In this document: one piece after another, positions 1 through 49,013 of the stretch
Layout of the letters: every line of letters begins with the position of its first letter
How positions within the stretch are numbered: position 1 is the stretch's first letter
DNA from: Anaerolineaceae bacterium
GTDB lineage: Bacteria > Chloroflexota > Anaerolineae > Anaerolineales > Anaerolineaceae
Length of the DNA stretch: 64,000 nt
Assembly: GCA_016841525.1 (NCBI GenBank)
Contig: JAENYZ010000006.1
Location: forward strand, 180,509 to 244,508
Direction: 5' to 3'
Made by a program: the position numbers and the translations under genes
The notes under the pieces: model-generated
Database searches by the model: none
Seen by the model: the letters and a program-made list of their open reading frames with translations, nothing else
What the model was told of the DNA's origin: nothing

Positions 1-517
1 ACCTGACCATATTTTCACCAGCTGGGCCAATAGTGGCAGAGCGAACCTGGTCATCACCGAAAATTTCGCGGATTTTTTCTTCTGTTTCATAAGTACCCAA
101 ACCCAGGAGTTTGTCAGCTGGTAGAAACTCCACACGATCATCATCGATGAATAAGTATATCCAGTCTTTACTTGCACCGTGGATGACAACGCCGTCCCAT
201 TGTGCCCGTTTCAAGGCAACAGAAAACCAGCTTCCTGAAAGACTATCACCGATGACACCGGTTAATGGTGATTTTGATGCCAGGCCATATTTACCACCTA
301 CAGGGACTGGTGTGCCTGAAAAGATGCCGTTTGCAAAGCAAATTGGATTTCCAGGATCATATGCATCACATCCTACTTTGATGTTTTCCCAGCAGAGGCG
401 AGTTGCCATGCAAACGCCACCGATATAAATTTTGTACCACTCTTCAGGTTTTTCTTCTGACCAGTGTTTTCGTTCATCCAGGTCTATGTGCAGAATTTTT
501 CCACTGTATCCATGCAT
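1..517 (-). CDS. aor: Aldehyde:ferredoxin oxidoreductase (tungsto/molybdopterin enzyme), N-terminal part; the 3' end lies outside the window
   Basis: Absent from the ORF track because it runs off the edge. Reverse translation from ATG at 515-517 gives MHGYSGKILHIDLDERKHW..IGGVCMATRL..GKYGLASKSPLTGVIGDSLSGSWF..TIGPAGENMV, typical of the AOR N-terminal domain. AAGGAG lies about 8 nt upstream. Confidence 0.8.
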   Translation of the reverse strand, partial: MHGYSGKILHIDLDERKHWSEEKPEEWYKIYIGGVCMATRLCWENIKVGCDAYDPGNPICFANGIFSGTPVPVGGKYGLASKSPLTGVIGDSLSGSWFSVALKRAQWDGVVIHGASKDWIYLFIDDDRVEFLPADKLLGLGTYETEEKIREIFGDDQVRSATIGPAGENMVR

Positions 518-3386: not shown

Positions 3387-4189
3387 GATGGTTTTGACCC
3401 TTCCGAGTGAAATGAGAAACGCTGGTAAAAACGTTGAAATACCTTTAAGAATGGGCGTGCCATAGTCAGCATGATAAGAATATTGCCAATTGAGCGGGTG
3501 ATGTCCCAAATGACAGAAGTCGCCAAATAATATGCACCGTATTTGCCCAGGTTTTCCAGCAGGCTGGCACTCTGACTCCAAGATGATCCCGCGCCACCGC
3601 CAAGGAAAGGCCAGAACCAGAGGTTCATTATCAATCCATATAGCATTCCCCAAAACGCGCTAAATAAGGTCAATACTAAAACTTCACCAAACTTTTCTTT
3701 TAAATGGAGTTTATTGTTTATATAAGATACTATGGATGCGGTCTGACCCACCCAGCCTGCTGTGATCATCTGTCCTGGTAACCAGGGTCCGATGCCGCCT
3801 GTAATCAAACCTGAAACGAACATGGTCATCGCTCCCATCAGGAAACCGATTCGACTACCAAAGAAGTAACCCACCAATATGATCAGGAAAAACGTTGGGC
3901 TAAACCCTGCAGGACCAGGTATTGCATTCTCAAGAAAACGCAAGCCAGCATTAATAGATATTAAGACACCTAAAAAGGCAATCATTTTATTGTCCAGAAC
4001 GGAAGATTGTGTTTCAATAAAAACAATTGCCAGGCACAAAATGATGATCAGACTGACCACAATTGGAAAAGCTGAAGATTGTATTTCAGTATTCCGAGCC
4101 TGGGGAAGAATAAAGGGTGCCAGAAGGCTCAAAAGACCGATTAGAAAAACAAAGATGTTTGTCAAAATCCCTGTAAGCGTTTTTTTCAT
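3383..4189 (-). CDS. ECF S-component-like integral membrane protein (putative corrinoid-specific)
   Basis: 268 aa, multi-TM and glycine-rich helices, with no soluble domain. It sits between the surface protein and the T/AA' genes with 4-nt ATGA overlaps on both sides. Substrate is inferred only from the cobalamin riboswitch. Confidence 0.55.
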   Translation of the reverse strand: MKKTLTGILTNIFVFLIGLLSLLAPFILPQARNTEIQSSAFPIVVSLIIILCLAIVFIETQSSVLDNKMIAFLGVLISINAGLRFLENAIPGPAGFSPTFFLIILVGYFFGSRIGFLMGAMTMFVSGLITGGIGPWLPGQMITAGWVGQTASIVSYINNKLHLKEKFGEVLVLTLFSAFWGMLYGLIMNLWFWPFLGGGAGSSWSQSASLLENLGKYGAYYLATSVIWDITRSIGNILIMLTMARPFLKVFQRFYQRFSFHSEGSKPS

Positions 4190-6672
4190 GCCTGCTTTCG
4201 GATGTATTTGAAATAAATGAAAACTGCCAGGAGAATTCCGAAGGTTGCAATGATTACGAGAGGGAGGGGATTAAATTGCTCTGCTTCTTCATCCTCAAAC
4301 CTCGTCTCATTTCGTGTTTGTTCTCCTGTCGTTTCTGGCGTTTCTGTCACAAAGCTTTCAGTTAGAGAGGGTTCAGTCATTTGTGGTGATTGCTGTGAAT
4401 CTTGCTTATTAAAATTACCATCTTGAGATCTAAAGAGATCTCCGTAGTTAAGATAGGATTGGACTTGATAATTTTTTAACACAGCTGTTCCACAAATTTC
4501 ACTTAAGTTTGTTCCATATGAAGGCGGTTTGGATGGAAATTCTTCCCAACTCGTCAAGTACCATGCCTGGATGCTGCCAGGCACAACTTCTGTTTGAGCC
4601 GCGCCGGTTTCATAAAACTGCCATTCTCTTCCATCCCAATACCAGTAAGACCAGTAAAGGGTGTCATCGTTAGGATTATTGAATCCTTCAATAGTATTAA
4701 TAAATCCGCCCTCAGAATCCACGTTTAGACCGGAGGAGTCTAAAAGCGTCATGCCTGATACTGAATTTTCATCAAGTGCGACACATCTTTTAATGATTTT
4801 ACCTTGTTGATTGGGGTCGATAATTAAAGCGGCATAAGGTTTAGTTTCGGGAGGTGTTACCATGTAGCTTCCATCAAACAGGGCCAACAAAGATGCTGTT
4901 GTTCCCATCAAATTATCGTCTGGATAGTCCCATGAGAAAACGAAGGCACCATTTGTCTTTTGAAAGGAAAGTAAATCTGGTAATGGGCTGAAGTTTTTCT
5001 CAGTATTCCAATCAGAACTTGATTCACCCAGGGCATTAAGTGCCATCAAGACAAAAGCTGTTGTGCTTGAATCACCCCAACCACCATCCTGCGATTGCAT
5101 TTCGTTGATATATGCCAAACCCATCTGGATGCTTGGGTCATCCCTGCTGACATTTGCTGCCAATAATGCCTGGATGGCTATTGCAGTATTGTCAGGCCAG
5201 ATGCCAGTGCCGGCGGCGTATTCCCAGCCGCCATTCTCTTTTTGTAGTGTTTTTAACGTATCGATTGCACCTTCTGGAATTTCTTCATCAGCTGCTGCAA
5301 GACCAAGGATAGCCATTGCCTGATGCCAGGTGTTCTCGGCGTCACCAAAGGCATTAACATTTGGGTCATACGTCTCCAGGAGCATTGTCACCAGGTTTTT
5401 GCCAGCAAACATCTTTGGATTTTCACCACTTGCGACCAGGCCAAGGATGAGCTTTCCAAGGGCATCCGGACCATTTTCAAGATAAGAATCAAGATTAGTG
5501 ACAATATAATCCGAAGGACTTATTTTGTTTTTGGTTATGGAATCCGGATCCCATCCGGCGGCTCGCAAAGCTAAAATGACATCCATGGTTTGCCCGACGG
5601 CGCCCCAACCGCCATCTGACCCCTGGTTTTCGATGATGTAATCAAAAGCGTGGCTTGCTCGCTTGACATAGCCTAAAGCATAAAGCGGCTGCCCTGACAG
5701 ACCGAGCAAGGCTTCTGCTGTTGAATATGCGTTTCCGTATTCACCGCCAATCATGCCATTTTCTTTTAGCAATGTGAGAAGTGCTTGCAAGGGATCTGAA
5801 CCTTCTCTTAGCCAGCTTTCATCCAGGGGATTTTCACCAATTGCGCTTATTGCCTGAAGGATCATGCCTGTCGTGTTTGCATTGGTGGTCGAGTCCCATT
5901 GTGTTTGCCATCCGCCATTGTTTTGTTGATTATTTTTAAGAAAATCGATCGCATTTTGAATTTCAGTTAGGTTTGCGTTGTCATGGTCAGATGCCATTAA
6001 TGCCATAACGGCTAAAGGTGTCATGTCAAGGAAACCACCAAAGCCATCATTCCAGCTGCCGTCATCATCTTGAGCATCGGTAAGCCAATCAACGGCCTCC
6101 GTTGGAATTGGAGCATGGTTTGCCGACAAGCCCAAAATAGCCCATACCTGGTCCGTCACGTTGTCAACCGTTGCAGTCCCATAAACGCCCGTTGTTAAAT
6201 CGTAGCGGCTGGTAATTTCGTATATATAATCAACAGGATCCTCGCCAAAATGCCTCGGATTATTATTTGCAGCAGCGATTGCTGTTAGGAGTTGGCCGGC
6301 TCTTGCGACATTAAATGCAGGTGCTTCACTATCAGACTTGTTGACCCAATCGTAACCAGAAACCGACAGAAAATCACTGGGAAGTTTTCCTGAAGGTGAC
6401 TGCAGATAGTCCTGTGGGTAATGATTTGCGGCCAGTGCTAAAACTGTGCGAATTGTGGCAGGGACACTTGACGTTTCCTCAATCCAACGAATACCGCCAT
6501 CTTGATTGAGTTGGGTTTTGAGGTAAGCAAATGCCCTTTCAATGTGCGTTTGGGGAATTTCCTGGCGAGAATGCTTTTGTATAGGATTGGCAATAACCCC
6601 AGGCAAGGATAAGGTGAATAAAGCAAATAACGAAAAAATTATGAATACAGTTTTAAGAACGGTTTTTGTCAC
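4186..6672 (-). CDS. Secreted, C-terminally membrane-anchored protein: prenyltransferase/terpene-cyclase-like alpha/alpha-toroid repeats plus a DUF4430 (transcobalamin beta-domain-like) module
   Basis: GTG start with a Sec signal (..LSLPGVIANP). About 8 repeats of the QDGGW type: QDGGIRW, DDGSWNDGFGG, NNGGWQTQW, SDGGWGAVG, ENGGWEYAAG, QDGGWGDSS, TNGAFVFSW. The DUF4430-like stretch is GGFINTIEGF..LYWSYWYWDGREWQF..GSIQAW. An acidic linker and final TM helix (LPLVIIATFGILLAVFIYF) follow. Confidence 0.7.
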   Translation of the reverse strand: MTKTVLKTVFIIFSLFALFTLSLPGVIANPIQKHSRQEIPQTHIERAFAYLKTQLNQDGGIRWIEETSSVPATIRTVLALAANHYPQDYLQSPSGKLPSDFLSVSGYDWVNKSDSEAPAFNVARAGQLLTAIAAANNNPRHFGEDPVDYIYEITSRYDLTTGVYGTATVDNVTDQVWAILGLSANHAPIPTEAVDWLTDAQDDDGSWNDGFGGFLDMTPLAVMALMASDHDNANLTEIQNAIDFLKNNQQNNGGWQTQWDSTTNANTTGMILQAISAIGENPLDESWLREGSDPLQALLTLLKENGMIGGEYGNAYSTAEALLGLSGQPLYALGYVKRASHAFDYIIENQGSDGGWGAVGQTMDVILALRAAGWDPDSITKNKISPSDYIVTNLDSYLENGPDALGKLILGLVASGENPKMFAGKNLVTMLLETYDPNVNAFGDAENTWHQAMAILGLAAADEEIPEGAIDTLKTLQKENGGWEYAAGTGIWPDNTAIAIQALLAANVSRDDPSIQMGLAYINEMQSQDGGWGDSSTTAFVLMALNALGESSSDWNTEKNFSPLPDLLSFQKTNGAFVFSWDYPDDNLMGTTASLLALFDGSYMVTPPETKPYAALIIDPNQQGKIIKRCVALDENSVSGMTLLDSSGLNVDSEGGFINTIEGFNNPNDDTLYWSYWYWDGREWQFYETGAAQTEVVPGSIQAWYLTSWEEFPSKPPSYGTNLSEICGTAVLKNYQVQSYLNYGDLFRSQDGNFNKQDSQQSPQMTEPSLTESFVTETPETTGEQTRNETRFEDEEAEQFNPLPLVIIATFGILLAVFIYFKYIRKQA

Positions 6673-6720: not shown

Positions 6721-6945
6721 TTAAATCATAACGCCCAGGTTGGGCGACAGGATGAGGTCGGAACTATTTAAAAAATCCGATACCCAAACTGCCTTTCCAC
6801 GAAGTGTTTTGGGTCACAAAGGGCGGGTTATCGGACTTCACCAATGGTGTTACCGTTGCGGGACAGTGCTGGACTTTCACCAGCTTCCCCCATTGTGCAC
6901 CTTGCATCCGGGCAGGAGGTGCACCCTTTATGGCTTATTTACTTA
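6694..6945 (-). promoter_or_regulatory. Cobalamin (B12) riboswitch with terminator expression platform
   Basis: The minus-strand RNA contains AAUGGGGGAAGCUGGUGAAAGUCCAGCACUGUCCCGCAACGGUAACACC, the conserved GGUGAAA-UCC / CCCGCAACGGUAA core. A B12-box-like GAAGUCCGAUAACCCGCCC follows, then a terminator hairpin just before the GTG start at 6672. Confidence 0.85.
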
Positions 6946-7024: not shown

Positions 7025-7447
7025 TTATTTAAGATTGATGGCAATGACATCCTTGACCTGAAGTTTGCTTGACAAATCAGGCATGACCATACGCAGGATG
7101 TCTTCATCGAATGCAACGATACAATTTGCACAGCTCAAGGCTTCTGCAAGCGGCATTTCTGCTTCATAGCCGTCGGAAGCTGTAAAGACGAGGGTTTCCC
7201 CGTCAGTGAGATTGGCGTCCTGCAATAGGTCGATAAGCGCAACACCTTGATAGGTTGTTGTTTCACCGTCCTTATTTGTGTAGTCGGCAGACAGCGTGTC
7301 ATAGGCTTCTAATTCTGACAGGGAAAATTCTTCTGAACCGACTATCAGGACGGCGGTTTCCGTTACCACTGCTTCTGGCGTTTGACTGCAGGCAGCAAGT
7401 AAGGCAACTAGAATAAACAGACTGGTGAATAAGAATGATTTTTTCAT
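7025..7447 (-). CDS. Small lipoprotein consisting of one copy of the operon's ~100-aa secreted module
   Basis: Lipobox LLAAC|S. Module signature TYQGVALIDLLQDANL..LVFTASDGYEAEMPL. AAAGGA RBS. Confidence 0.6.
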   Translation of the reverse strand: MKKSFLFTSLFILVALLAACSQTPEAVVTETAVLIVGSEEFSLSELEAYDTLSADYTNKDGETTTYQGVALIDLLQDANLTDGETLVFTASDGYEAEMPLAEALSCANCIVAFDEDILRMVMPDLSSKLQVKDVIAINLK

Positions 7448-7475: not shown

Positions 7476-7970
7476 TTATTTGTGAACAATGATCTCAGTA
7501 ACTTGAAATACCCAACGATTGGCTGGCGTCATGGGGAAAACCAGCCGAATGGGACCAGCGTCTGGTTCAGCATCGACAATCCATTCGCCAGCTTGTGTAA
7601 GGGCGACAATCCCATCGACCATTTCGTCTTTACTGATTTCAATAGCGTAACCGTCGGCTGCGATTGCGGTAATTGTGCTGATATCATCCGGAGCACCAAC
7701 TTTTTCTAAGAGTAAGGCAAGTGGAACACCGCTAAAAGAACGGACCTCGTCTTCTCCCCGTGATTTTTCCATGAGTACTTCATTCAAATCAACCAGTTCC
7801 ATTTCGGATAATTCGGCGAATGAAAATGTTGTTGGGTTGTCCACATCTCCAGAAATGGAGAGCTCCCATTCAACTTTGGGTGTGCTACCACAGGCGGTGA
7901 GGAGCATGGAAATGCATATCAGCACTACCCATTTTGAAATATTTACTTTTGGTTGCCCGACTTTAACCAT
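7476..7970 (-). CDS. Small lipoprotein, one copy of the secreted module
   Basis: Lipobox LLTAC|G. Signature SFSGVPLALLLEKVGA..ITAIAADGYAIEIS..GPIRLVFP..WVFQVTEIIV. AAGGAG RBS. Confidence 0.6.
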   Translation of the reverse strand: MVKVGQPKVNISKWVVLICISMLLTACGSTPKVEWELSISGDVDNPTTFSFAELSEMELVDLNEVLMEKSRGEDEVRSFSGVPLALLLEKVGAPDDISTITAIAADGYAIEISKDEMVDGIVALTQAGEWIVDAEPDAGPIRLVFPMTPANRWVFQVTEIIVHK

Positions 7971-7980
7971 ATCAACTCCT

Positions 7981-9111
7981 TTATTTCTCGATAAAAATGA
8001 TGGGAATAATTAGATCGGCGGCTGTTAAGGTGCCATGGTTTCCGCCGTCCTCTGTTTTGTGCATGCCATGGTCGGCAAAGATTGTGATCAGGGTGTCTTC
8101 TGGCAGCCTTATGAAAATTTCTTCCAAATAACTGTCAACCTGGATAATAGATGCTTCATATTCTGAAGAAAAAGGTCCGTATTGATGCCCCATATCGTCG
8201 ATGTCATGAAAATGAATATAAAGCAAATCTGGCATATCCGAGAGGATGACTTCAAGGCTGTTTTCAAAGACATTATCATTTGTGATGCCATTTTCATCCC
8301 GATCACCGCTTAAAATTGTTTCAGCATTTCTCAAGTTGAATGCCAGGCTGTGTCCTTCTACAGCGATTACCGATTTACTATTTTCTGCAAAAAGATCAAA
8401 AAGGGTTTTGGATGTGGTCTTGCGATAACCATAACCATAAACTTTGTTTTCTTTTGGCAATGTACTGGTTAAAAGCGCTGCTGATGAGGATGTTGTAATG
8501 GGTGGAAATACCGTTATTCCCTGCTGAACCCCGTTTAATTGCTCAAAGAAAGGTAATTTTCCCGTATCAATTAATGATGTGAGGATATCGTAATTAAGAC
8601 CATCCAGGAAAATCATGACGGCATGATCCCAAATGCCTGATTCGGTCAAACGAACCTGGCCATTGGCGTTGGGTAATTCTGGCAAAGTAAAGGCATAAGC
8701 AATGGTCGGGGCAATATCCATAATTGAGTAATAATTGGAAATTGAAGGCGCATCAATTTCAATTTGATCCGCGGATATCATTTTGTCGTCTTCCAATGTG
8801 ATTTCACCGGATTCTCGAATTGTTGCTGTCTCACCTATTTCATCCCAGACATAGGTTAAGCTTGCTTCGCTTTCTGATATGAATGTGATTTCATCTACGA
8901 GGGTGTAGCCAAGATCATATAACATTTGACCCAGGGGGATTTCACTGGTTTCTTCCTCGTAATTATCGATATAGAATTTGACGCTTTCTTGATTGATCAC
9001 GCCAATATTGCGTCCATCTTCAAAGACCTCGATTTTCCAGGCAGGTTTACAGGCAGAAAATAAGAAAACAAAGGACAGCAAGAGGATGATTTTTGTTTTG
9101 TTTTTTATCAT
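7981..9111 (-). CDS. Lipoprotein: N-terminal module copy plus a nucleotide pyrophosphatase/phosphodiesterase (alkaline-phosphatase superfamily) domain
   Basis: Lipobox LFSAC|K. AlkP/NPP motifs: VMIFLDGLNYD (metal Asp), PPITTSSSAALLT (Thr/Ser nucleophile region), HFHDIDDMGHQYGP and IFADHGMH. Confidence 0.7.
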   Translation of the reverse strand: MIKNKTKIILLLSFVFLFSACKPAWKIEVFEDGRNIGVINQESVKFYIDNYEEETSEIPLGQMLYDLGYTLVDEITFISESEASLTYVWDEIGETATIRESGEITLEDDKMISADQIEIDAPSISNYYSIMDIAPTIAYAFTLPELPNANGQVRLTESGIWDHAVMIFLDGLNYDILTSLIDTGKLPFFEQLNGVQQGITVFPPITTSSSAALLTSTLPKENKVYGYGYRKTTSKTLFDLFAENSKSVIAVEGHSLAFNLRNAETILSGDRDENGITNDNVFENSLEVILSDMPDLLYIHFHDIDDMGHQYGPFSSEYEASIIQVDSYLEEIFIRLPEDTLITIFADHGMHKTEDGGNHGTLTAADLIIPIIFIEK

Positions 9112-9113
9112 TT

Positions 9114-10034
9114 CTAATTTGACTCGATTTCCACAATTTGAGTTGGCCAGACGCTTCTTCCACGATCTGGTAAGACGAGGGTAACCTCATCTTTGACGAT
9201 TGCGATGATTGCATTTTGAATTTCATCTGCCGTTAATTCTATAACCTCACCGTTAGAATCTGTGATGATAACGACATCCGGAGAAGTGGTCTTTAGCAGG
9301 TCCAATAGTCTAGGCCCTTCAACCCAGTTTGCGACCATTGCATGGCTCAGGTTCCCAGTATCATCGGAAAGCATGACATCTGATCCTTCGACTGTTAACC
9401 GCATTGTGTCCCCTAATAACAGCCTTCCAATCGAAGTCGCTTCACCATCAATCGTGAGGGGTCTGTCTTTCCCAACAATCGTGATCCGATTGATGCCTTT
9501 CAGCCAGGTTGAATTATGAATGGTTTCTGTTATAAAACGAACGCCATCAATATAAGGAACTAACATCGCCGTTTCATCGAGGTATTGGTATTCGATTGTC
9601 GTTAATCCACCATCATTGGTTATGAATGTTACGGTTTCAAACTCCTGGACGCCGTGCATTTCCAGAAAATTTAGTAATGTGATATGTGTCCCTAAATTTT
9701 CTTGATCAGGAATGACCTGATGGATCCTCACAAAGCTTGGGTCTGGAACATCTCCTGTTAATTCGACGATCTCAGAAAATGGGATATTTGTTAGTTCAAC
9801 AGACCCATGTTCGTCATGACAGGTTTCGCAGGAATGAAAATCCACTGAATCATGGCATTCTGCACATTCGTTCATCTCCAATCCCTCTTTCCAGAGCAAG
9901 CCCAAGCCGTATTCCTGCAGTAAAGAAACTGGCATTGGTTTTGCAGTGATGACAAGCGCGATGATCACACCAAATAACGAAATGGTGAAAACGATAAGAA
10001 AGATGATGATAGGCTTTGATTGATACTTCTTCAT
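9114..10034 (-). CDS. N-terminally membrane-anchored protein with two CXXCH motifs followed by two module copies
   Basis: One TM helix (IIIFLIVFTISLFGVIIALVI), then ECAECHDSVDFHSCETCHDEHG (9816-9866), then two module-like segments. Start set to ATG 10034 (ATGA overlap with the EcfT stop, GGAG 7 nt upstream) rather than 10046. Confidence 0.6.
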   Translation of the reverse strand: MKKYQSKPIIIFLIVFTISLFGVIIALVITAKPMPVSLLQEYGLGLLWKEGLEMNECAECHDSVDFHSCETCHDEHGSVELTNIPFSEIVELTGDVPDPSFVRIHQVIPDQENLGTHITLLNFLEMHGVQEFETVTFITNDGGLTTIEYQYLDETAMLVPYIDGVRFITETIHNSTWLKGINRITIVGKDRPLTIDGEATSIGRLLLGDTMRLTVEGSDVMLSDDTGNLSHAMVANWVEGPRLLDLLKTTSPDVVIITDSNGEVIELTADEIQNAIIAIVKDEVTLVLPDRGRSVWPTQIVEIESN

Positions 10035-10816
10035 AGAGTTCTCCAATAATTCAAAAGAAATAAACTGCCAAAGTAAAATATCAAAATCAAGCTGACAAAT
10101 AAATCAAGTCGAGTTGCTTTTGGGGCTCTGTGAAACGTTCGTTCAGTTTGCCTTCCAAAACCTCTTCCTTCCATACTGAATACCAGCTTATCCGTTCGAC
10201 GAAGTGCGCTAATCAGAAGGGGTGTCAAGAATTGTTTGATAAGATTCAGGATTTTAATAACGCTTCCCTGGTCGTACCGAACACCACGTAGAAGCTGTGC
10301 TTTATAAATGATTTGTCCCTCTTCTTCAAGGATGGGTGCCAACCTTATTGCGGTCACAAGCATAAACCCATACCGGTAAGGTAAACCAATTTTCATCAAT
10401 GCATATGCAATGTCATTGGGTTTTGTGGTCAGGATAAAGAGATAACTCGAAAAAATGATCAATAGAAAACGACTGCTTATGAGTAAGCCCAGATTAAGTC
10501 CGTTTGATGTAATCTGTAAAAAACCGATACCAGGATCCAGAAGATTTTTACCTTGTTTATCAAAGAGAATATAAAGCACAAAGAGCATGAGGCCTGTTGC
10601 TAAAGCCATTCGAAAGCCTCTCACTGTTAAGATATCGGGTTTGATCAACAACAGCAGGATTAAGCTAAAGAAAGCAGTGATGGCGAGCAGTTCCGCCCAG
10701 TTTACGATGAAGGCAAAAGTTGTAGTGAGCAGTAGCCAGGTAAATTTTGTTATTGGATAAAGACGGTGCAAAAGGCTGTGACCAGGGGAGTAGGTGAGCT
10801 TATGCATAGATTTCAC
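10031..10816 (-). CDS. ecfT: ECF transporter transmembrane component EcfT (CbiQ family)
   Basis: About 260-aa polytopic protein with EcfT coupling motifs IIYKAQLLRGV..LISALRRTDKLVFSMEGRGF. It overlaps the ATPase gene end; the start could be 10816 or 10807. Confidence 0.8.
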   Translation of the reverse strand: MKSMHKLTYSPGHSLLHRLYPITKFTWLLLTTTFAFIVNWAELLAITAFFSLILLLLIKPDILTVRGFRMALATGLMLFVLYILFDKQGKNLLDPGIGFLQITSNGLNLGLLISSRFLLIIFSSYLFILTTKPNDIAYALMKIGLPYRYGFMLVTAIRLAPILEEEGQIIYKAQLLRGVRYDQGSVIKILNLIKQFLTPLLISALRRTDKLVFSMEGRGFGRQTERTFHRAPKATRLDLFVSLILIFYFGSLFLLNYWRTL

Positions 10817-12299
10817 TCAATCTCTTATTGGGAACAAATGAATCAAAACCCGAGGTTCTTAAGGTTTCAAAAGCTAAATCTACAGGCTGGTCCAGTAAAA
10901 TTCTTCCCTCATCAAGGAAGATCAAACGACGACAAAAAGTTTCGGTAAGCTGGGGATGATGGTTTACTAATAAAACAGAATTTCCAAGTTTCGTATAGTC
11001 ATAAAGAATGTTCATCCAGATGATTGCATTCGCCATATCCTGACCAATTAATAATTCATCAATTATGAGAAGCCTTGGGTTGTGAAGCATGGCTGCTAAT
11101 AGATTCAAGCGTCGTTTTTCACCATAACTCAGACGTTGTGGGTGATCATCCACTCGATCTAACAATTCAATTTGTTTGAGCCAATTTTTCGCTTGATTTA
11201 CGATGTCTTCTGTAAGAAACTTGAGATTTTTTGATGTGAATATCAATTCATCCAGAACAGATTGCGTAAATAATTGGTGATCTGGATTTTGAAAAATATA
11301 TCCTACATCTTTTACGAGTTCGGATGTTCTAATATTTGGGGATGCCTGGTTGAAAAAGCGAAGGCTTCCACTGCTTGGCCGATGAAAACCAACCAAAGAT
11401 TGTAGTAAAGTGCTTTTCCCACTTCCGTTTGGTCCCATAAGGGCAATAAACTCGCCAGGAGCAATTTTGAAATTAATGCCCTGGAGAATAATTTTGTCCT
11501 GAATTTTCACTTCAAGGTTTTCCGCATCTACCAAAATGCCATTGTTTTGATTTTGATGAGAAGTTCTCCCAGTAAAGGAGAGATTTATCCTGTTGCTGGA
11601 TTCAGAAAGATATTGGTCATTTCCAAAGGGTTTGATTTCACCCTGGTCAAGCATAAATAATTTTGGATTTAGATCTAGAAGTTGGGATAATTTATGCTCA
11701 AATATGATTACAGTCAAACCCATAGACTGGTGTAAGCTGTGAAGGGTTTGGAAAATATTTCGGGTAGCTATGGGATCTAAATTTGATGTCGGTTCATCAA
11801 GGATCAGCAAGTCAGGCGATAGGGCAAGCATGGATGCAATCGCGACCTTTTGCTTTTCTCCGCCTGATAGCGTCGCTAAGTCGCGGCCTCTGAGGTTTAA
11901 ACCTCTGACAATCGCCAGTGATTTATTAATTTTGTCTTCGATTTCATCTGGTGTAACACACAAGTTTTCAAGACCAAAGGCAATTTCATCGTCAACATTG
12001 AGTGTGCAAAATTGATCTTCAGGGTTTTGCTGAACATACCCAACTTTTCTGCTGGCTTCATAAAGGGGGAGCTGGGTCATATCTTCGCTGTTGATAATAA
12101 TTTTTCCTGAATAATTTGCTGTATCATCCTGAAATAAAAAACCTGCCAGGGCTGTACCGAAGGTTGATTTTCCACAGCCAGACTTACCTGTGATCACAAC
12201 GAAATCGCCGCGATAGATTTCAAAATGCAAATCACGAAACACAGGTGTATCCTCACCAGGATATGTATAAGAAAAATCACTTACCTTGACCCAGCTCAT
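10800..12299 (-). CDS. ECF transporter ATPase, fused EcfA-EcfA'
   Basis: Cassette 1: GKSGCGKST, LSGGEKQKVAIA, LILDEPTS. Cassette 2: GPNGSGKST, LSYGEKRRLNLL, LIIDELLIGQD. Confidence 0.85.
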   Translation of the reverse strand: MSWVKVSDFSYTYPGEDTPVFRDLHFEIYRGDFVVITGKSGCGKSTFGTALAGFLFQDDTANYSGKIIINSEDMTQLPLYEASRKVGYVQQNPEDQFCTLNVDDEIAFGLENLCVTPDEIEDKINKSLAIVRGLNLRGRDLATLSGGEKQKVAIASMLALSPDLLILDEPTSNLDPIATRNIFQTLHSLHQSMGLTVIIFEHKLSQLLDLNPKLFMLDQGEIKPFGNDQYLSESSNRINLSFTGRTSHQNQNNGILVDAENLEVKIQDKIILQGINFKIAPGEFIALMGPNGSGKSTLLQSLVGFHRPSSGSLRFFNQASPNIRTSELVKDVGYIFQNPDHQLFTQSVLDELIFTSKNLKFLTEDIVNQAKNWLKQIELLDRVDDHPQRLSYGEKRRLNLLAAMLHNPRLLIIDELLIGQDMANAIIWMNILYDYTKLGNSVLLVNHHPQLTETFCRRLIFLDEGRILLDQPVDLAFETLRTSGFDSFVPNKRLSEIYA

Positions 12300-12302: not shown

Positions 12303-13682
12303 TTAATTAATTTCTATACTTGAAACAGGGTAAACAAGAACATCACCGGTCATTTCAGCAAGCACATAACTGATTCCTTTGTCCTCAATCAAAATGAATA
12401 ACCGAATGTCGTTATTTTGGTCAATTTTCTCCCAATCAAGCGTGAGATTTTGCCCTGTTTCTGATTTGAAGAGGACTTGGGATATGTTACTTCCTGTTGC
12501 TGATGCTTCAATGACTTTCCACACGGGCACACCCTGAAGCTTCTGAGATCCTTCAGGAAGTGCAATTTGTGTACTGTCCATCTCTGATATCCAGTTTTTA
12601 GCTTCAAATAAAAATATTCCACCCTGCGGCATATTGACTTCGAGTGCTTTAGCAGCAATCAACCGAATTTCTATTACATTCCGAACCCAGGCTTTATTAC
12701 TTTCTGGCCCGACAATATCAAATGAGGCATTTTGGCCACGTCCTTGTTGAACCAGAAGAATGTTTTCATTTTCAATAAGTTCTTCAAGGCTAATCATGAA
12801 GGCATAGCCATCAGATGCTTCAATCAGGATGGTGTTGGTGTCTTTATTAGGTTCCGCATAATTAATAATCTCACTCAATTGGAAGCCTTCGTATGAAGTG
12901 AGAACGCCGCGATAATCCATTTGGCGAGAGATTTTATTAATTTTTAGTTCGTTATTTGGAAATTCAATGGCATTTTCTACTGCGCCTGAAATTTTAACGG
13001 TTTCAGCACCTTTAAGTGTTGTTAACAAAATGGATATAAAGGCTGCAGCAAATATCAACGCACTGAACAGGATGATCCATCCCAATTTTTGCAGCTTTTC
13101 TTTTTGTGTTGGCAATTTTACAACGCCAGCATTTGTGAGCATATTGATCAACCAATAAGGCAAAAGTCCTGCAAAGACGAAACCTGAGAGAGCAGCCAGA
13201 AGGAATAAGATCGCAATAGCACTCAAGCCGAGAATATTTAATGGTATGGTCGCAAATATTTGAAAAACCAGAACATTGGATCCTGATGCCAATCCACCTG
13301 CGAGCAGATAAGCAAGCAAGGACCTTTTATTGCGAAACAAAAGAAATCCGAAATCAACCAAAATTCCAGCAATCAGATCGACCAATAAGATAATGATTCC
13401 ATGGCTGTTCCCACTAAAAAGTTCGACGGCACCTTTTAAGATGCCCATGACAATGCCCGTCCCTGGCTTTTGAATAATCCCAAAGGCAATTACAATCCAC
13501 AGGACGTGCAATCCAGCTGCCCATTGTGTCCCGCCCGGGAAACCAAGGGCTGCCTGAACAAGATCACCAAGTGCGTTGATATAAGTGCCGGTGACACCTC
13601 CAAGTGCCGCCAGCACAGCCATAATTAACAAATTGTGGGTTGAAAAATAAAAGGATTTGTTATTTCCTTCTTGTGTTGTCAA
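12303..13682 (-). CDS. ECF S-component-like membrane core fused through an extra TM helix to two extracytoplasmic module copies
   Basis: TTG start 8 nt after AAGGAG. About 190 aa of small hydrophobic helices (..GGVTGTYINALG..AAGLHVLWIVIAFG..) are followed by TM helix LGWIILFSALIFAAAFISILL. Then come SYEGFQLSEIINYA..LIEASDGYAFMISL and KLQGVPVWKVIEA.. Confidence 0.6.
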   Translation of the reverse strand: MTTQEGNNKSFYFSTHNLLIMAVLAALGGVTGTYINALGDLVQAALGFPGGTQWAAGLHVLWIVIAFGIIQKPGTGIVMGILKGAVELFSGNSHGIIILLVDLIAGILVDFGFLLFRNKRSLLAYLLAGGLASGSNVLVFQIFATIPLNILGLSAIAILFLLAALSGFVFAGLLPYWLINMLTNAGVVKLPTQKEKLQKLGWIILFSALIFAAAFISILLTTLKGAETVKISGAVENAIEFPNNELKINKISRQMDYRGVLTSYEGFQLSEIINYAEPNKDTNTILIEASDGYAFMISLEELIENENILLVQQGRGQNASFDIVGPESNKAWVRNVIEIRLIAAKALEVNMPQGGIFLFEAKNWISEMDSTQIALPEGSQKLQGVPVWKVIEASATGSNISQVLFKSETGQNLTLDWEKIDQNNDIRLFILIEDKGISYVLAEMTGDVLVYPVSSIEIN

Positions 13683-13684
13683 AG

Positions 13685-13710
13685 AAAAAGCTCCTTCCAG
13701 AAAAAGGAGC
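13685..13710 (-). terminator. Terminator / RBS-sequestering hairpin of the leader
   Basis: GCUCCUU-(7 nt)-AAGGAGC followed by UUUUUCU, then the TTG start. The 3' arm is the Shine-Dalgarno sequence. The 5' arm (CUCCUUUUU) can alternatively pair with the aptamer's 3' strand GGAAAGGAG. Confidence 0.7.
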
Positions 13711-13754
13711 GCACAAAAACAAAACGATCTATAATTTATCGTGTTGTTGTGTTG

Positions 13755-13849
13755 ATCTCCTTTCCAAATACGGGAGGCAAGTACGTTTCCATTCTTACCC
13801 TATCGGTCTGAGTGCCATAGCAGCACATTAGGCAAGCAGACTCGAAGAT
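13755..13849 (-). promoter_or_regulatory. Candidate riboswitch aptamer, resembling the Moco (molybdenum/tungsten cofactor) RNA motif
   Basis: The minus-strand RNA is AUCUUCGAGUCUGC..UAUGGCACUCAGACCGAUAGGGUAAGAAUGGAAACGUACUUGCCUCCCGUAUUUGGAAAGGAGAU. P1 pairs AUCUUC with GGAGAU. Internal helices are GUCUG/CAGAC and GGUAAG/CUUGCC. The islands CGAG, GGCACUC, GCCUCCC and GAAAGGAG appear in the order I recall for RF01055. This rests on my memory of the consensus, not a covariance-model score. Confidence 0.5.
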
Positions 13850-13876
13850 ACTACAACTAATTATTCGATTATTGAT

Positions 13877-13904
13877 ATTTTAACACAGGCAGTCATTCGG
13901 TCAA
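13877..13904 (-). promoter_or_regulatory. Sigma-70-like promoter for the second ECF operon
   Basis: Minus strand reads TTGACC (13899-13904), a 16-nt spacer, then TAAAAT (13877-13882). Confidence 0.6.
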
Positions 13905-23733: not shown

Positions 23734-25784
23734 TACTCAAGCATGCCTTTCTTTTTCACCAGGAATATTCTAAAAATTGTGCCTCCTGTGTAACTGTCCA
23801 CCTCAATTTTACCTTTATGGGCATTAATAATCCTTTGTGTTATTGCTAACCCCAGGCCAGTACCATGATCAGAACCTGTAACAAATGGTTTAAACAAATG
23901 TGCTTTGATTTCATCAGGAATGCCGTGCCCTGAATCTGTCAGGATCACCTGGTAAAATTTCCGATCTTCTTCAAGTTCAGGTTCGGTAATGCGAATGCCC
24001 AGGGTGCCTCCTTCTTCGCTCATTGAATTCACAGAATTACTGATGATATTTGTAAAAACTTGTTCCAGTGCTCTCAGGTCGCCTTCAACAATAGGATTGA
24101 CAATCTGTGATTCGTAATAAGACGAAATGTTCAAACGGAGCAGCCTTGGGTGCCATCTGTCTAAAATATGCCTTAACATGAAGTCCAGGTCCACCCCAGA
24201 CATTTTGTATTCCAGGGGCTTGGCAAATGAAAGCACGCTTTCCATCAAGTAAAGCAATTTATTGCATTCATCCCGCATGTTATCAATCCATTTAAGATTT
24301 TCATCACCCTCAGATAAATTGTCTTCAATGACTTCCAGCGAAAGCATGATTGCGTTAATAGGGTTTCGCACCTCATGGGCAAAAATCGCCATGACTTCTC
24401 CCAGTATGGCGCGCTGTTCCAGTTGTTTTCTGGCCGCCTGGTTCTGTTCTTGCTGGCTGATGTCCTTGATTAAAATGATAATTGAAAGGACATGTCCATT
24501 TTGCATAACCGGGGACATCATTATTTGAGCAGGGAAGGACGTGCCATTGCGATGGTGCAATGTCAGGTCGCCGCCTGTGAGGGTTGGAATGCCTTGCCTG
24601 GCTGATGAGAGTGCAGAACCAAGCGATTCGGACCCAATCAAGATGGAATCAATTGGCTGCCGCAAGGCTTCAACATTGGCGTAACCAAGGATCGTTTCAA
24701 TAGCAGGATTGGTCTCTGCAATGGTCAGATCTGGAGCGAGGATAATAACACCTTCGTCAAGATTCTCAATTATCTCATTTTGAATTTTTACAACTTGCCT
24801 GATTTTACTTGAGAGATTTTTTAAATTTTGAAGGGAAATCTGGTCTTCCATTATTTCTGTTATGTAAACAGCTAATAGTTCTGTGAGGGGAAGGCTTACC
24901 TGTGTTGGAGCTGACTGTTTACTTCCGGCTAATAACAGACCAAATTTTGCCTCTTCATTTCCAAGAGGTGCTGTGATCAGAAATTTATAACCTGCATTTG
25001 CAGCAGTCTTTTGAAGATGGGTCTTTGGTGGAATTTCGGACCGCCACTCGACCGTGTCTGATGCGTTGACCAGGTCCTCACCCGATAGAACCTTTGGGAA
25101 TTCGGAAGCCATACGCTCATCATTGGACTGAAATTGCATCAATTGTGGTTTTCCACCGCTGGCTTTATAGATTGAGACAAACTCAGTCTCTAAAATTCTC
25201 GCTGATTCCTTAACAATATGTGAGAGTGTCTCAGAGAGGTTATTCTTGTTTTCATTCTTGAATAGTATTTTCAGGTTCTCGATAAATTTAACCTGTTCAT
25301 GGATACTTGATTGGCTCGTTGTTATCCCCTCAGGCTGAAAAGTCAGGAGAAGCAAATTCTGTTTATGGGTGAGGGGAAAGATCTTCACCCTAACAGGGAT
25401 CAAAGGCTGTTTCTTGTGCTTTAGAAAGGCTTTTTGGTCATGTCCAGAGATTGGATCGGTGTCTGAAATGTCAGGAAGAAGATTTTCAATTGGCTGTCCA
25501 AGGAAATCTTTTTCCCCAAGATTTGTCAGCAAAAACAGGGGGTTGTTGGCTGTAAGAATTTTGTTTTCTGTTTGGTTGTAAATAATTGCCGGATCCTGAA
25601 TTAAATCAATTAAGGTCAGGATCGTTTGAATCCCTTCATTCTTTGAAAATTCAACATTTGCCAGGCTTTCGGTAATATTTTGGGTCACATTGTACTCAAG
25701 CAGTTGCAAATTTTTCGATTCGGCGTAGGTGTGCTGGCAAAATGCCCTCCATTGCGCGATATTTTGCGACAGTTCTGCGTGCAA
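23733..25784 (-). CDS. Soluble sensor histidine kinase (PAS/GAF sensory region, HisKA, HATPase)
   Basis: H-box FAHEVRNPINAI. ATPase boxes NIISNSVNSM, DSGHGIPDE and GTGLGLAI. No TM segments. A 1-nt TAATG overlap links it to the regulator gene. The listed start is TTG 25784 and remains uncertain. Confidence 0.8.
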   Translation of the reverse strand: MHAELSQNIAQWRAFCQHTYAESKNLQLLEYNVTQNITESLANVEFSKNEGIQTILTLIDLIQDPAIIYNQTENKILTANNPLFLLTNLGEKDFLGQPIENLLPDISDTDPISGHDQKAFLKHKKQPLIPVRVKIFPLTHKQNLLLLTFQPEGITTSQSSIHEQVKFIENLKILFKNENKNNLSETLSHIVKESARILETEFVSIYKASGGKPQLMQFQSNDERMASEFPKVLSGEDLVNASDTVEWRSEIPPKTHLQKTAANAGYKFLITAPLGNEEAKFGLLLAGSKQSAPTQVSLPLTELLAVYITEIMEDQISLQNLKNLSSKIRQVVKIQNEIIENLDEGVIILAPDLTIAETNPAIETILGYANVEALRQPIDSILIGSESLGSALSSARQGIPTLTGGDLTLHHRNGTSFPAQIMMSPVMQNGHVLSIIILIKDISQQEQNQAARKQLEQRAILGEVMAIFAHEVRNPINAIMLSLEVIEDNLSEGDENLKWIDNMRDECNKLLYLMESVLSFAKPLEYKMSGVDLDFMLRHILDRWHPRLLRLNISSYYESQIVNPIVEGDLRALEQVFTNIISNSVNSMSEEGGTLGIRITEPELEEDRKFYQVILTDSGHGIPDEIKAHLFKPFVTGSDHGTGLGLAITQRIINAHKGKIEVDSYTGGTIFRIFLVKKKGMLE

Positions 25785-27129: not shown

Positions 27130-27265
27130 AATCTCAGCTCCTGGAATCATTATAAATGAATAATGCATTTGTTGCAAGAAGCATGCCAGGTATTTTCAGG
27201 AGCAGGTTTATAGACTATCCTTCGGGTGGTAAAATGCACTTATCCTAATTTGTGAGGCTTTTTTT

Positions 27266-48990: not shown

Positions 48991-49013
48991 TAACATCTAA
49001 CTTTTGTAATTTG

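Follow-up and report, generated by a model that had tools for sequence, protein, structure and literature searches.

Gene Organization of the Locus

The window analyzed here, i.e., the whole stretch of 64,000 nt, contains on its minus strand an operon of seven genes spanning from position 13682 down to 7025, as well as the start of an oxidoreductase gene that extends beyond the window:

12303–13682 (minus strand): S-fusion, 459 aa, with a TTG start (PF09819; PDB 5edl, YkoE; weak match to PF00174)
10800–12299 (minus strand): fused EcfA-EcfA′ ATPase, 499 aa, with two ABC_tran domains (TIGR04520, TIGR04521)
10031–10816 (minus strand): ECF T component, CbiQ family
9114–10046 (minus strand): membrane-anchored CxxCH protein (unk310), with two conserved CxxCH motifs and PruR-like modules
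7981–9111 (minus strand): lipoprotein NPP376, with a type I phosphodiesterase/nucleotide pyrophosphatase domain of the alkaline-phosphatase superfamily (PF01663; lipobox)
7476–7970 (minus strand): lipo164, a 164-aa lipoprotein with one SUOX/PruR-like module (PF00174, 44.7 bits)
7025–7447 (minus strand): lipo140, a second SUOX/PruR-like lipoprotein of 140 aa, the last gene of the operon (PF00174, 22.7 bits)
2–517 (minus strand): 5′ end of a tungsten-type aldehyde:ferredoxin oxidoreductase (AOR) gene, which runs off the window (AFOR_N, 181 bits)

The operon thus encodes a complete ECF importer set of the YkoEDC type (dedicated group I), with an S component, A and A′ ATPases and a T component. 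In the S-fusion, a YkoE-type S component is followed by an extra transmembrane (TM) helix (residues ca. 198–222) and by two SUOX/PruR-like modules (ca. 229–343 and ca. 347–458; HHalign, 95–97%), and its AlphaFold2 model (pLDDT 80.5) retrieved 5edl, SorA, YedY and PruR with Foldseek. The earlier note on this DNA had not seen the fusion partner of this protein, and had also left Moco and Tuco undivided. Unk310 is probably translated from the ATG at 10034, which would yield 306 aa; it matches lipo164 (HHalign, 96%), its best fold matches are to PruR, and its homologs are all annotated as hypothetical. The S-fusion, unk310 and an 879-aa protein received no informative name from NCBIfam. The catalytic motifs of NPP376 align with those of PhnA and ENPP6, and the best PDB sequence match of lipo164 is PruR (7kos), with its DGY motif aligned to N102-D-Y104 of PruR. 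Lipo140, in turn, matches lipo164 with HHalign (98.4%), and is followed by the next promoter and a cobalamin riboswitch, which belong to a second ECF operon running from 6943 down to 788.

The synteny of the seven genes is maintained across Anaerolineaceae down to 35% identity; metagenome-assembled genomes with the operon include those of OY776562.1, JAXGYD010000001.1 and JAENZD010000001.1. Among 31 orthologous loci with upstream DNA, the aptamer described below was complete in 28 and truncated by the contig end in one, while the operons of loci L023 and L029 have no riboswitch. Three distant relatives (L025, L026, and L032) contain a lipo164 ortholog preceded by its own Moco riboswitch, which in L026 (18094–18242) and L032 includes helix P3, and distant operons also encode a DsrMK/HdrD-like membrane Fe-S protein.

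The Operon Leader Contains a P3-less RF01055 Aptamer

The features found upstream of the S-fusion gene are the following:

13877–13904 (minus strand): promoter-like site, TTGACC, 16-nt spacer and TG-extended TAAAAT (10/12 hexamer matches; consensus match only)
13741–13859 (minus strand): RF01055 aptamer, P3-less subtype (Rfam match plus covariation, 28 orthologs)
13755–13849 (minus strand): aptamer core closed by P1
13849–13844 with 13760–13755 (minus strand): P1, AUCUUC with GGAGAU; 100% paired across 28 sequences, with changes from A-U to C-G and from U-G to C-G
13806–13841 (minus strand): P2, GUCUG (13841–13837) with CAGAC (13810–13806); six pairs with compensatory changes
13775–13800 (minus strand): P4 and GAAA tetraloop, GGUAAG (13799–13794) with CUUGCC (13781–13776); five pairs with compensatory changes
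13773–13771 with 13766–13764 (minus strand): P5, short
13724–13742 (minus strand): linker hairpin, ACGAU-N9-AUCGU, separating aptamer and terminator
13681–13710 (minus strand): intrinsic terminator and SD-sequestering hairpin, GCUCCUUUU-UCU-GGAAGGAGC followed by UUUUUCUUU

Comparison with Rfam identified positions 13741–13859 as a Moco/Tuco element (RF01055) with 74.5 bits (gathering score, 36; E = 3.7e-16), and with the match covering the complete model (1–135 of 135); no other Rfam family matched the leader. This agrees with the class that the earlier note had assigned from sequence islands, and with its statement that the element is not a cobalamin, TPP, FMN, THF or preQ1 riboswitch. Not all of those islands were equally informative: CGAG, GCCUCCC and GAAAGGAG show little or no variation in the 28 orthologs, but GGCACUC corresponds to the variable 3′ strand of P2. 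The P1 helix and the two inner helices described before, GUCUG/CAGAC and GGUAAG/CUUGCC, are present as proposed, and to them we can add P5 and an internal loop in P2 resembling a tetraloop receptor (CCUAAU/UAUGG in the window vs. the canonical CCUAAG/UAUGG), both absent from that description. P2 is further extended by the pairing of UGCC (13834–13831) with GGCA (13816–13813).

An Rfam search and a covariation analysis of homologous leaders had been suggested before as checks of this assignment, and both turned out positive. Standard pairs occupied 94.1% of the pair cells in the alignment of the 28 orthologous leaders, in comparison to 39–46% in slid controls, and compensatory changes occurred at 14 of the 29 pairs; none of 500 shuffles reached the observed values. 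Helices P1, P2, P4, and P5 are all supported by covariation, as exemplified by a pair in P4 (alignment columns 74/85) that is AU in 11 sequences, GC in another 11 and CG in three. In these 28 sequences, the unpaired core segments CGAG (after P1), CCUCCC and GGAAAGG consist of columns without variation or with at least 90% conservation; the P4 loop is GAAA in 27 of them and AAAA in that from locus L005, and the AAAC core is invariant. A chance match and a different riboswitch class were rejected by the Rfam and covariation results. The leader is, therefore, a genuine Moco/Tuco riboswitch and a new member of RF01055, the RNA itself being ordinary.

The positions of the RF01055 model corresponding to P3 are deleted in the window aptamer, while P1, P2, P4, and P5 are present, and P3 was likewise absent from all 28 leaders of the ECF operons. 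Variants without P3 constitute the proposed Tuco class (Regulski et al., 2008, PMC2408646), and this absence places the element in that subtype, as far as the correlation between lack of P3 and Tuco, which derives from gene context only (PMC2408646), can be extended. The window element resembles this subtype in its full-length match, in having P1, P2 with the receptor, P4 with GAAA, P5 and the conserved junction nucleotides, in the lack of P3, as in 58 of the 176 original examples, and in a host with tungsten metabolism (PMC2408646). It differs from the set described in 2008 in that the phylum of the host, Chloroflexota (Anaerolineaceae), was not on that list (PMC2408646), and in that the genes controlled are not for Moco biosynthesis, modABC/tupABC or a known Moco/Tuco enzyme. 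Indeed, the genes of the window operon relate neither to synthesis of molybdopterin (MPT) nor to any known use of Tuco. The RNA thus adds to a family known since 2008 a well-formed member from Chloroflexota with an unusually clean platform, combining terminator and SD sequestration.

The Predicted Ligand

The tungsten cofactor is the most likely ligand in this member of Anaerolineaceae, an organism that uses tungsten. Tungsten-cofactor metabolism in the host is indicated by the AFOR_N fragment at the edge of the window, 13 kb away from the riboswitch, and by the full-length AOR gene in contig L033; the AOR is a likely consumer of the cofactor. A relative, B. fermentans, has tupA, a MoeA-PBP fusion and AORs, with tupA and the MoeA-PBP fusion known only from there. 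Contig L033, which is near-identical to the window, was reached through a 99%-identical lipo164.

The RNA might instead sense Moco, either metal form or a metal-free pyranopterin intermediate, with the lack of P3 being no determinant of specificity, which we consider doubtful although it deserves serious attention. Apart from the correlative nature of the link between P3 and Tuco, this reading draws on loci L026 and L032, where a P3-containing copy upstream of the lipo164 ortholog regulates part of the same gene set as the P3-less copy. If P3 set the metal specificity, this arrangement would divide a single system between two ligands, and it fits a strict Mo/W split awkwardly. Against it stand the tungsten-type AOR gene near the operon, the tupA gene and MoeA-PBP fusion of B. 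fermentans, and the response in a tungsten context of all five P3-less elements from Eubacterium limosum (PMC11725836). In the literature that we searched, there was no report of in vitro ligand binding for any RF01055 member.

The Expression Platform Is Consistent with a Ligand-OFF Switch

From the promoter-like site, transcription would start at around position 13870. Downstream of the aptamer, GCUCCUU (13710–13704) pairs with AAGGAGC (13696–13690), and these are followed by UUUUUCUUU; a terminator scan found the same hairpin as nine pairs with a 3-nt loop. The SD sequence AAGGAG (13691–13696) lies within the 3′ arm of the terminator, 8 nt ahead of the TTG start codon (13682–13680), in agreement with the earlier description of a terminator whose 3′ arm is the SD. 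Equally confirmed was the proposed antiterminator, a pairing of 9 bp, including two G-U pairs, between GGAAAGGAG (13765–13757) and CUCCUUUUU (13709–13701). This partner of GGAAAGGAG is the 5′ arm of the terminator, whereas GGAAAGGAG itself has four bases in common with the 3′ strand of P1 (GGAGAU, 13755–13760).

The predicted energies were −10.1 kcal/mol for the terminator hairpin and −9.1 kcal/mol for the antiterminator duplex. Because the unconstrained minimum free energy (MFE) structure of the whole leader was a mixed fold, with neither P1 nor the proposed antiterminator formed, the analysis of the switch was based on constrained and truncated folds. With the antiterminator forced (ON), the MFE was −47.6 kcal/mol, vs. 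−48.3 kcal/mol with P1 and the terminator forced (OFF), so that both states are nearly isoenergetic; additionally, a transcript ending before the 3′ arm of the terminator folded into the antiterminator. The arrangement GCUCCUU-loop-AGGAGC-U-run-UUG occurs in 22 of the 28 orthologous leaders, and in most orthologs the 5′ arm of the terminator is a perfect complement of GGAAAGGAG; since a strict terminator finder missed several orthologs, due to mismatches and long loops, a motif-based count was added. A linker hairpin is present in all 22 linkers from the Brevefilum clade (40–51 nt), in spite of their unrelated sequences. The near-isoenergetic forced folds, the antiterminator in the truncated transcript and the platform in 22 of 28 leaders support that the terminator and an antiterminator using the 3′ strand of P1 are mutually exclusive, and support the ligand-OFF logic (P1 vs. 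antiterminator vs. terminator/anti-SD) put forward previously. These structures are computed, and we infer their dependence on the ligand.

Under this model, in the absence of ligand GGAAAGGAG, which comprises the 3′ strand of P5, J5/1 and the 3′ strand of P1, would pair with CUCCUUUUU ca. 45 nt downstream, with the linker hairpin bringing both strands together; the antiterminator would block the terminator and leave the SD free, allowing transcription and translation of the operon. Upon binding of the ligand, GGAAAGGAG would be retained by P1 and P5, and CUCCUU would pair with AAGGAG, generating an intrinsic terminator that would also bury the SD of the TTG start. The best explanation for the leader (13690–13859, minus strand), and very probably the correct one, is thus that it is a P3-less RF01055 riboswitch turning the seven-gene operon (13682 to 7025) off when the metal-pyranopterin cofactor is sufficient.

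The terminator is modest (−10.1 kcal/mol, 7–9 bp), and control could therefore be mainly translational. Taken further, the hairpin at 13710–13690 would only sequester the SD, with translational control and no termination of transcription; besides the short stem, this would suit the poor U-run of some orthologs (L009 and L013 have no U, with spacers of 0 and 2 nt) and the translational control of three out of five Tuco switches in E. limosum (PMC11725836). We consider it rather improbable, because in the window and in most orthologs at least five U directly follow the hairpin, and the more distant loci L026 and L028 have strong GC-rich terminators separate from the SD, which indicates that termination is the conserved output.

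The closest counterparts of this platform are the Tuco riboswitches at fetABC1 and focA of E. limosum, also P3-less RF01055 elements followed by a terminator hairpin and transporter operons; they too work as OFF switches, and in this organism the genes behind P3-less, terminator-type elements are derepressed under tungsten limitation (PMC11725836). Unlike in fetABC1 and focA, one hairpin in the window would act as both terminator and SD sequester. Likewise, the transporters of E. limosum are either FocA or classical ABC systems with an annotation as iron transporters (PMC11725836), whereas the window operon encodes an ECF importer with modules of a pterin-binding fold.

The Extracytoplasmic Modules Are PruR-like

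The modules of the operon proteins are mutually homologous (HHalign probability of 94–98%), and their Foldseek matches include SorA, YedY, SoxC and PruR, among them a neopterin complex. The pterin-contacting N-x-Y of PruR aligns with an invariant D-G-Y in the modules. At the position of the Cys that ligates Mo, the lipo164 orthologs contain Glu, Arg or Asp; the extracytoplasmic domains of the S-fusion have no Cys at all, and the signal peptides of the operon proteins have a lipobox or are of Sec type, with no twin-arginine motif in any of them. The modules thus lack the conserved Cys Mo ligand and the Tat export of SUOX-family molybdoenzymes, and their SUOX-like fold, predicted secretion, lack of the Mo-ligating Cys and retention of the pterin-stacking Tyr are those expected of putative non-enzymatic pterin-binding proteins.

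The modules share with PruR (PDB 7kos, 7kom, 7kp2, and 7rkb; PMC11194511) the condition of small secreted SUOX-fold modules without a Mo-ligating Cys and with the Tyr of N/D-x-Y conserved; PruR entries were among the best fold matches of the S-fusion and were the best for unk310, and lipo164 is similar to PruR in length. By contrast, PruR is the partner of the c-di-GMP enzyme DcpA in signaling of Proteobacteria and has a Trp at the Cys position (PMC11194511), whereas the window modules contain Glu, Arg or Asp, number five to seven, are attached to a transporter by fusion or linkage, and are controlled by a Moco riboswitch. No DcpA-like gene was found in the operon, indicating that the modules are PruR-like but not orthologs of PruR; they would therefore work as PruR modules do, as putative pterin binders.

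A Candidate Uptake System for a Molybdopterin-Type Cofactor

Few guides to the substrate of a transporter are as reliable as the context of a riboswitch, and the conserved gene set described here, with its modules of a pterin-binding fold and its ECF importer, is marked by a Moco-family riboswitch in two independent placements. We tentatively propose, with confidence only slightly short of even, that the operon functions in the salvage of a molybdopterin-type cofactor or precursor. In this view, the extracytoplasmic SUOX/PruR-like modules, five to seven in number, together with the CxxCH redox protein and the nucleotide pyrophosphatase, would capture and process the cofactor or its precursor from the anoxic environment on behalf of the dedicated YkoEDC-type ECF importer; the pyrophosphatase could cleave the dinucleotide forms MGD or MCD, and the ECF module would take up the processed product. 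It is quite possible, if somewhat less assured, that this is the first candidate bacterial system for uptake of a molybdopterin-type cofactor, whether Tuco, Moco, MPT free of metal, or a precursor that comes from MGD or MCD. It would consist of an ECF importer with multiple extracytoplasmic PruR/SUOX-like capture modules, two of them joined to the S component by way of a seventh TM helix, and would include the secreted nucleotide pyrophosphatase and the CxxCH redox protein.

We know of no bacterial transporter for Moco, Tuco or molybdopterin, and the passage of pterins across membranes was considered unexplained in a 2026 review (PMC13259868). Our literature searches found no published precedent for a Moco riboswitch with an ECF system, for Moco with an ECF transporter, or for a fusion of an S component to extracellular domains. 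Still, parts of the arrangement are familiar. The TPP riboswitch-ykoFEDC system is a riboswitch-controlled ECF vitamin importer and, as in it and in the cobalamin ECF operon of the window, a cofactor-sensing OFF riboswitch precedes an S-AA′-T operon; a YkoE-family S component and a fused, duplicated ATPase are also shared with importers of this type. The differences reside in the class of riboswitch, in an S component with a seventh TM helix and two extracytoplasmic modules, and in four additional accessory proteins that are secreted or anchored; to our knowledge, ECF importers normally operate without extracytoplasmic binding proteins. Similarly, in the NadN/PnuC system for NAD the cofactor is cleaved outside the cell before its uptake, and there too the importer, which takes up the vitamin moiety, is encoded alongside a secreted nucleotide pyrophosphatase, although a substrate such as MGD or MCD is hypothetical here.

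Regulation by Tuco is in itself no proof of a pterin substrate, because elsewhere Tuco riboswitches control transporters annotated as iron transporters (PMC11725836). The operon might accordingly import a non-pterin compound, such as tungstate, molybdate, iron or a thiamine-like molecule as with YkoE, with the riboswitch merely coordinating its supply with the status of the cofactor. The S component does belong to the YkoE family, tupABC and "Fe ABC" transporters are found under Tuco riboswitches in E. limosum (PMC11725836), and the CxxCH motifs could relate to handling of metal or heme. Nevertheless, at least five modules match the SUOX/PruR fold and keep the pterin-contact motif, one module gene is separately under a Moco riboswitch, and it is not obvious what a nucleotide pyrophosphatase would do in metal uptake, which makes this reading unlikely. 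Besides, ECF systems are not known to us to carry oxyanions.

It is very unlikely that the extracytoplasmic proteins form a Moco-dependent redox system similar to YedYZ/MsrPQ, whose output would be tuned by the riboswitch to the supply of cofactor. Annotation pipelines do name lipo164 [quoted passage not shown] and the conserved CxxCH motifs, together with the DsrMK/HdrD-like Fe-S protein of distant operons, suggest electron transfer. However, Moco enzymes loaded with their cofactor are normally exported by Tat, in contrast with the lipobox and Sec-type signal peptides of these proteins, and the Mo-ligating Cys is missing as described above; moreover, an OFF switch would stop the enzyme exactly when the cofactor is abundant, and a redox system would not account for the tight fusion with an ECF importer. 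There is also scant probability that the RNA of this clade has drifted toward a non-Moco pterin (neopterin or monapterin) salvaged by the operon, since the core is canonical for RF01055, with CGAG, CCUCCC and GGAAAGG invariant and a score as high as that of typical members, even if PruR binds small pterins and not Moco (PMC11194511) and the modules are of PruR size.

Several points weigh against cofactor salvage: Moco and MPT are very labile, the truncated cleft of PruR-type modules has been argued to be too small for the whole Moco (PMC11194511), lipo164 is of PruR-like length, and L023 and L029 have the operon but no riboswitch. If this function is true, the modules would be binding proteins that might stabilize the cofactor. 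The sharing of Mo/W cofactors in anaerobic communities, e.g., in digesters, would then become testable, and the clusters combining P3-less and P3-containing riboswitches would offer a natural system for studying discrimination between Moco and Tuco. As for the rest of the 64-kb window, the AOR fragment was the only other Moco-related gene; the minus-strand genes at 37.8–40 kb, tentatively taken from their sizes as moaA, moaB/C, and mobA, were identified with Pfam as those for a sugar epimerase/dehydratase, a GtrA-family protein and a methyltransferase.

Identity of the leader RNA

The leader of the S-fusion gene, the first of the regulated operon, contains the following elements, given in order of transcription.

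13904–13877, minus strand: promoter-like site, TTGACC-16-TGnTAAAAT
13849–13844 with 13760–13755, minus strand: aptamer-closing helix P1, AUCUUC with GGAGAU
13742–13724, minus strand: linker hairpin
13710–13690, minus strand: hairpin GCUCCUUUU-UCU-GGAAGGAGC, followed by UUUUUCUUU
13682, minus strand: TTG start codon of the S-fusion gene

When the entire window was searched against Rfam 15 with gathering thresholds as cut-offs, this leader was matched to RF01055 (Molybdenum/Tungsten cofactor riboswitch; 13741–13859, minus strand), with 74.5 bits against a threshold of 36 bits, an E-value of 3.7e-16 and full coverage of the model, and to no other family. This is the Moco/Tuco (molybdenum/tungsten cofactor) class that the earlier note had assigned from the sequence alone, and a check of the minus-strand sequence located all the helices it had listed, each at the position given there; the RNA is a further member of an already known riboswitch family. 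Among the sequence islands named in support of that assignment, CGAG, CCUCCC and GGAAAGG show no or almost no variation in 28 aptamers, whereas GGCACUC falls in a variable strand of P2.

The RF01055 alignment of the leader includes P1, P2, P4 with a GAAA tetraloop, and P5, while the P3 hairpin of the model is deleted. The family has been split by the presence or absence of P3, and the RNAs lacking it (58 of 176), which occur in organisms with tungsten-cofactor metabolism, were proposed to sense Tuco (Regulski et al., 2008; PMC2408646). Eubacterium limosum contains five such P3-less elements, and tungsten limitation derepressed the genes behind the two that are of the terminator type, according to a 2024 study (PMC11725836).

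Conservation of the aptamer

The S-fusion protein has more than 570 homologs of ca. 458 aa; those that are named derive from MAGs of Anaerolineaceae/Chloroflexota. When one genome for each GTDB species was scanned, 32 loci came up, almost all of them in Brevefilum or other members of the Anaerolineaceae; 28 of these loci have a complete aptamer upstream of the S-fusion ortholog, and in one more (L012) it is cut by the contig end. The upstream DNA is absent from locus L007, and searches upstream of the orthologous operons in L023 and L029 gave no RF01055 match. L023 shows a promoter-like sequence where the aptamer would be, and in L029, a high-GC contig binned as 'Rickettsiales', another gene ends shortly upstream of the S-fusion gene.

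RNAalifold recovered the Rfam architecture from an alignment of the 28 aptamers. Standard pairs occupy 94.1% of the pair cells, but only 39–46% when partners are slid by 1–3 columns, and compensatory double changes occur in 14 of the 29 pairs (89 cells, versus 26 expected from shuffles); in 500 shuffles neither the observed paired fraction nor the observed covariation score was reached. These covariation statistics come from related sequences and are to be read accordingly, yet the slid control retains this relatedness and scores far lower. The covariation proposed as a check in the earlier note is thus present.

Expression platform

The AAGGAG Shine-Dalgarno sequence (SD) lies inside the 3′ arm of the 13710–13690 hairpin, 8 nt ahead of the TTG codon, and GGAAAGGAG (13765–13757) is complementary to CUCCUUUUU (13709–13701) over 9 bp, including two G-U pairs. 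Forced folds gave minimum free energies of −47.6 kcal/mol for the antiterminator and −48.3 kcal/mol for P1 plus terminator, and the antiterminator is the default fold of a transcript that stops before the 3′ arm of the terminator. Such a modeled balance between ON and OFF folds would be expected of a switch that is tipped by ligand binding to its aptamer.

The arrangement GCUCCUU-loop-(A)AGGAG(C/U)-U-rich spacer-UUG/GUG is found 41–52 nt past the aptamer in 22 of the 28 leaders. The 5′ arm is CUCCUUUCC in most of these 22, a perfect Watson-Crick complement of GGAAAGGAG, and the duplex energies of ortholog 5′ arms with GGAAAGGAG go down to −14.6 kcal/mol. The linkers between aptamer and terminator fold as hairpins in 22 of 22 despite their unrelated sequences. 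In the more distant loci L026 and L028 the terminators are strong, GC-rich and do not overlap the SD, which indicates that termination is the conserved output; SD sequestration is an extra feature of the Brevefilum clade. The near-equal folds, the default antiterminator and the recurrent platform all agree with the ligand-OFF logic put forward in the earlier note. We consider it very probable that the leader works as a P3-less RF01055 riboswitch which, with abundant ligand, would terminate transcription and mask the SD, a ligand dependence that we infer.

The regulated operon

Seven close-packed genes, with gaps or overlaps of at most 28 nt, extend from 13682 to 7025 on the minus strand.

Gene 1: S-fusion, 459 aa, with a YkoE-family ECF S component (PF09819; PDB 5edl) as its N-terminal half
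Gene 2: fused EcfA-A' ATPase
Gene 3, 10031–10816, minus strand: ECF T component
Gene 4, 9114–10046, minus strand: membrane-anchored protein of 306–310 aa with two strictly conserved CxxCH motifs
Gene 5: lipoprotein with a type I phosphodiesterase/nucleotide pyrophosphatase domain (NPP) that keeps the alkaline-phosphatase-superfamily catalytic motifs
Genes 6 and 7: small lipoproteins matching PF00174, the molybdopterin-binding domain of sulfite-oxidase-family (SUOX) enzymes, with 44.7 and 22.7 bits

In protein 1, the S component is followed by a K-rich loop, a seventh TM helix and 235 C-terminal residues forming two beta-rich domains. All homologs of the CxxCH protein are annotated as 'hypothetical'. 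For two genes the mechanically called ORF probably begins too far upstream: the ECF T gene has a 258-aa call in the closely related 470-kb contig L033, and the CxxCH protein probably starts at the ATG at 10034, since its homologs have 306 aa.

The gene order is kept in all loci long enough to show it, down to 35–40% identity. Signs of decay or assembly error appear in L031 (13634–15409; CxxCH gene absent, matches to NPP and to the 164-aa lipoprotein lipo164 truncated), L021 (10215–12095; only partial S-fusion and ATPase matches) and L011 (in-frame stop and broken first CxxCH in the ortholog of the CxxCH protein). Distant operons (L026, 13580–15502, plus strand; equivalent gaps in L025, L028, and L032) have an extra gene between those for the ECF T component and the CxxCH protein. 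Its 640-aa product, with five N-terminal TM helices, a 4Fe-4S dicluster domain and two CCG domains, resembles DsrMK or HdrD and, taken with the CxxCH protein, suggests that electrons may be delivered to the outside; we speculate that this could keep a pterin reduced. The L026 CxxCH-protein ortholog has a single CxxCH motif.

SUOX/PruR-like modules

In an AlphaFold2 model of protein 1 (pLDDT 80.5), the N-terminal half matches YkoE, and the matches of the C-terminal half are to sulfite dehydrogenase, YedY, SoxC, nitrate reductase and the pterin-binding PruR proteins, including one neopterin complex. Profile-profile comparisons showed mutual homology, with 94–98% probability, among both beta-rich domains of protein 1, both small lipoproteins and the C-terminal half of protein 4, whose model has PruR as best fold match; two more segments gave weaker matches. 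The best PDB sequence match of lipo164 is PruR from A. tumefaciens, with its conserved D-G-Y aligned to PruR N102-D-Y104, which contact the pterin (PMC11194511). The D-G-Y and a Trp are invariant across the S-fusion family. Because lipo164 orthologs have Glu, Arg or Asp where SUOX enzymes have the Mo-ligating Cys, and because the signal peptides, of lipobox or Sec type, show no twin-arginine motif, these modules look like apo binding modules outside the cell and not like molybdoenzymes.

Possible function of the operon

An OFF switch that senses an end product typically controls the synthesis or uptake of that product. This switch, combined with a vitamin-type ECF importer and multiple pterin-fold capture modules, leads us to propose, tentatively and at somewhat less than even odds, that the operon may serve to import a molybdopterin-type cofactor, or a precursor of one, for salvage. 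By analogy with NAD, which is cleaved extracellularly before uptake, the secreted nucleotide pyrophosphatase could split the dinucleotide forms MGD or MCD and so set the pterin moiety free. Counting against salvage, the cofactor is labile. Additionally, the clefts of PruR-type proteins have been considered not long enough for the entire Moco (PMC11194511), and some transporters under Tuco riboswitches carry an iron annotation (PMC11725836). In the literature searched, which omitted most subscription journals, we found no paper linking Moco riboswitches to ECF transporters or PruR-like proteins; how pterins cross membranes is unknown, according to a 2026 review (PMC13259868).

Second riboswitch, tungsten use and genomic neighbors

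In the distant loci L025, L026, and L032 the lipo164 ortholog is on the opposite strand, with its own RF01055 riboswitch (43–63 bits) directly upstream.

L026, 18094–18242, minus strand: second RF01055 copy
L032, 18254–18398, minus strand: second RF01055 copy
L025, 19528–19715, minus strand: second RF01055 copy

The SUOX-like binding protein is therefore tied twice to Moco-family riboswitches. The second copy contains P3 in L026 and L032, while that before the ECF genes is P3-less; both subtypes in one cluster argue for caution in equating P3 absence with tungsten specificity.

The window edge cuts the gene for a tungsten-type aldehyde:ferredoxin oxidoreductase (AOR; 5′ end at 2–517, minus strand; AFOR_N, 181 bits), which is full length in L033 (lipo164 99% identical) and followed there by genes for a 4Fe-4S protein and an FAD oxidoreductase. 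The relative Brevefilum fermentans has two tungsten AORs (PMC5481317) and a MoeA-PBP fusion near tupA (PMC11291035). With this gene and this literature, the Tuco reading therefore fits the criteria of Regulski et al. The 271-nt gap ahead of the AOR gene gave no riboswitch hit; the gene's promoter-proximal neighbor is an ECF operon under a cobalamin riboswitch.

6805–6943, minus strand: cobalamin riboswitch (RF00174, 61.7 bits)
4186–6672, minus strand: 828-aa anchored protein
3383–4189, minus strand: ECF S component
2370–3653, minus strand: CbiQ-family T component
788–2413, minus strand: double ABC ATPase
48905–48998, minus strand: glycine riboswitch (RF00504, 61.3 bits, one aptamer detected)

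The cobalamin riboswitch has its own promoter (TTGACA-17-TAGAAT, 6980–6952) and two terminator-like hairpins (6746–6732 and 6722–6697), and the 828-aa protein has squalene-cyclase/prenyltransferase-like alpha-alpha toroid domains. Lying right next to the Moco-riboswitch operon, these genes resemble another ECF importer for a cofactor, one that has an extracytoplasmic accessory protein; the synteny extends to L003 and L009. The glycine riboswitch is in its classical context, upstream of gcvH (48431–48820) and two glycine-cleavage P-protein subunit genes (47073–48428 and 45623–47080), all on the minus strand.

Directly upstream of the Moco-riboswitch operon (14055–22111, minus strand) are two very large genes, for a 1804-aa TPR-repeat protein and an 879-aa protein, both syntenic with the operon across the Brevefilum clade, a synteny that more distant relatives do not share. 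The 879-aa protein had no domain hit in Pfam scans, but Peptidase_C25 is listed for it in the precomputed L033 table; a hairpin, CCCCAG-CGAC-CUGGGG, comes after its gene. The products of three adjacent genes at 22552–27177 (minus strand) are a sigma-54 factor, a PAS histidine kinase and a sigma-54-dependent response regulator, a set notable in Chloroflexota and unrelated to the riboswitch.
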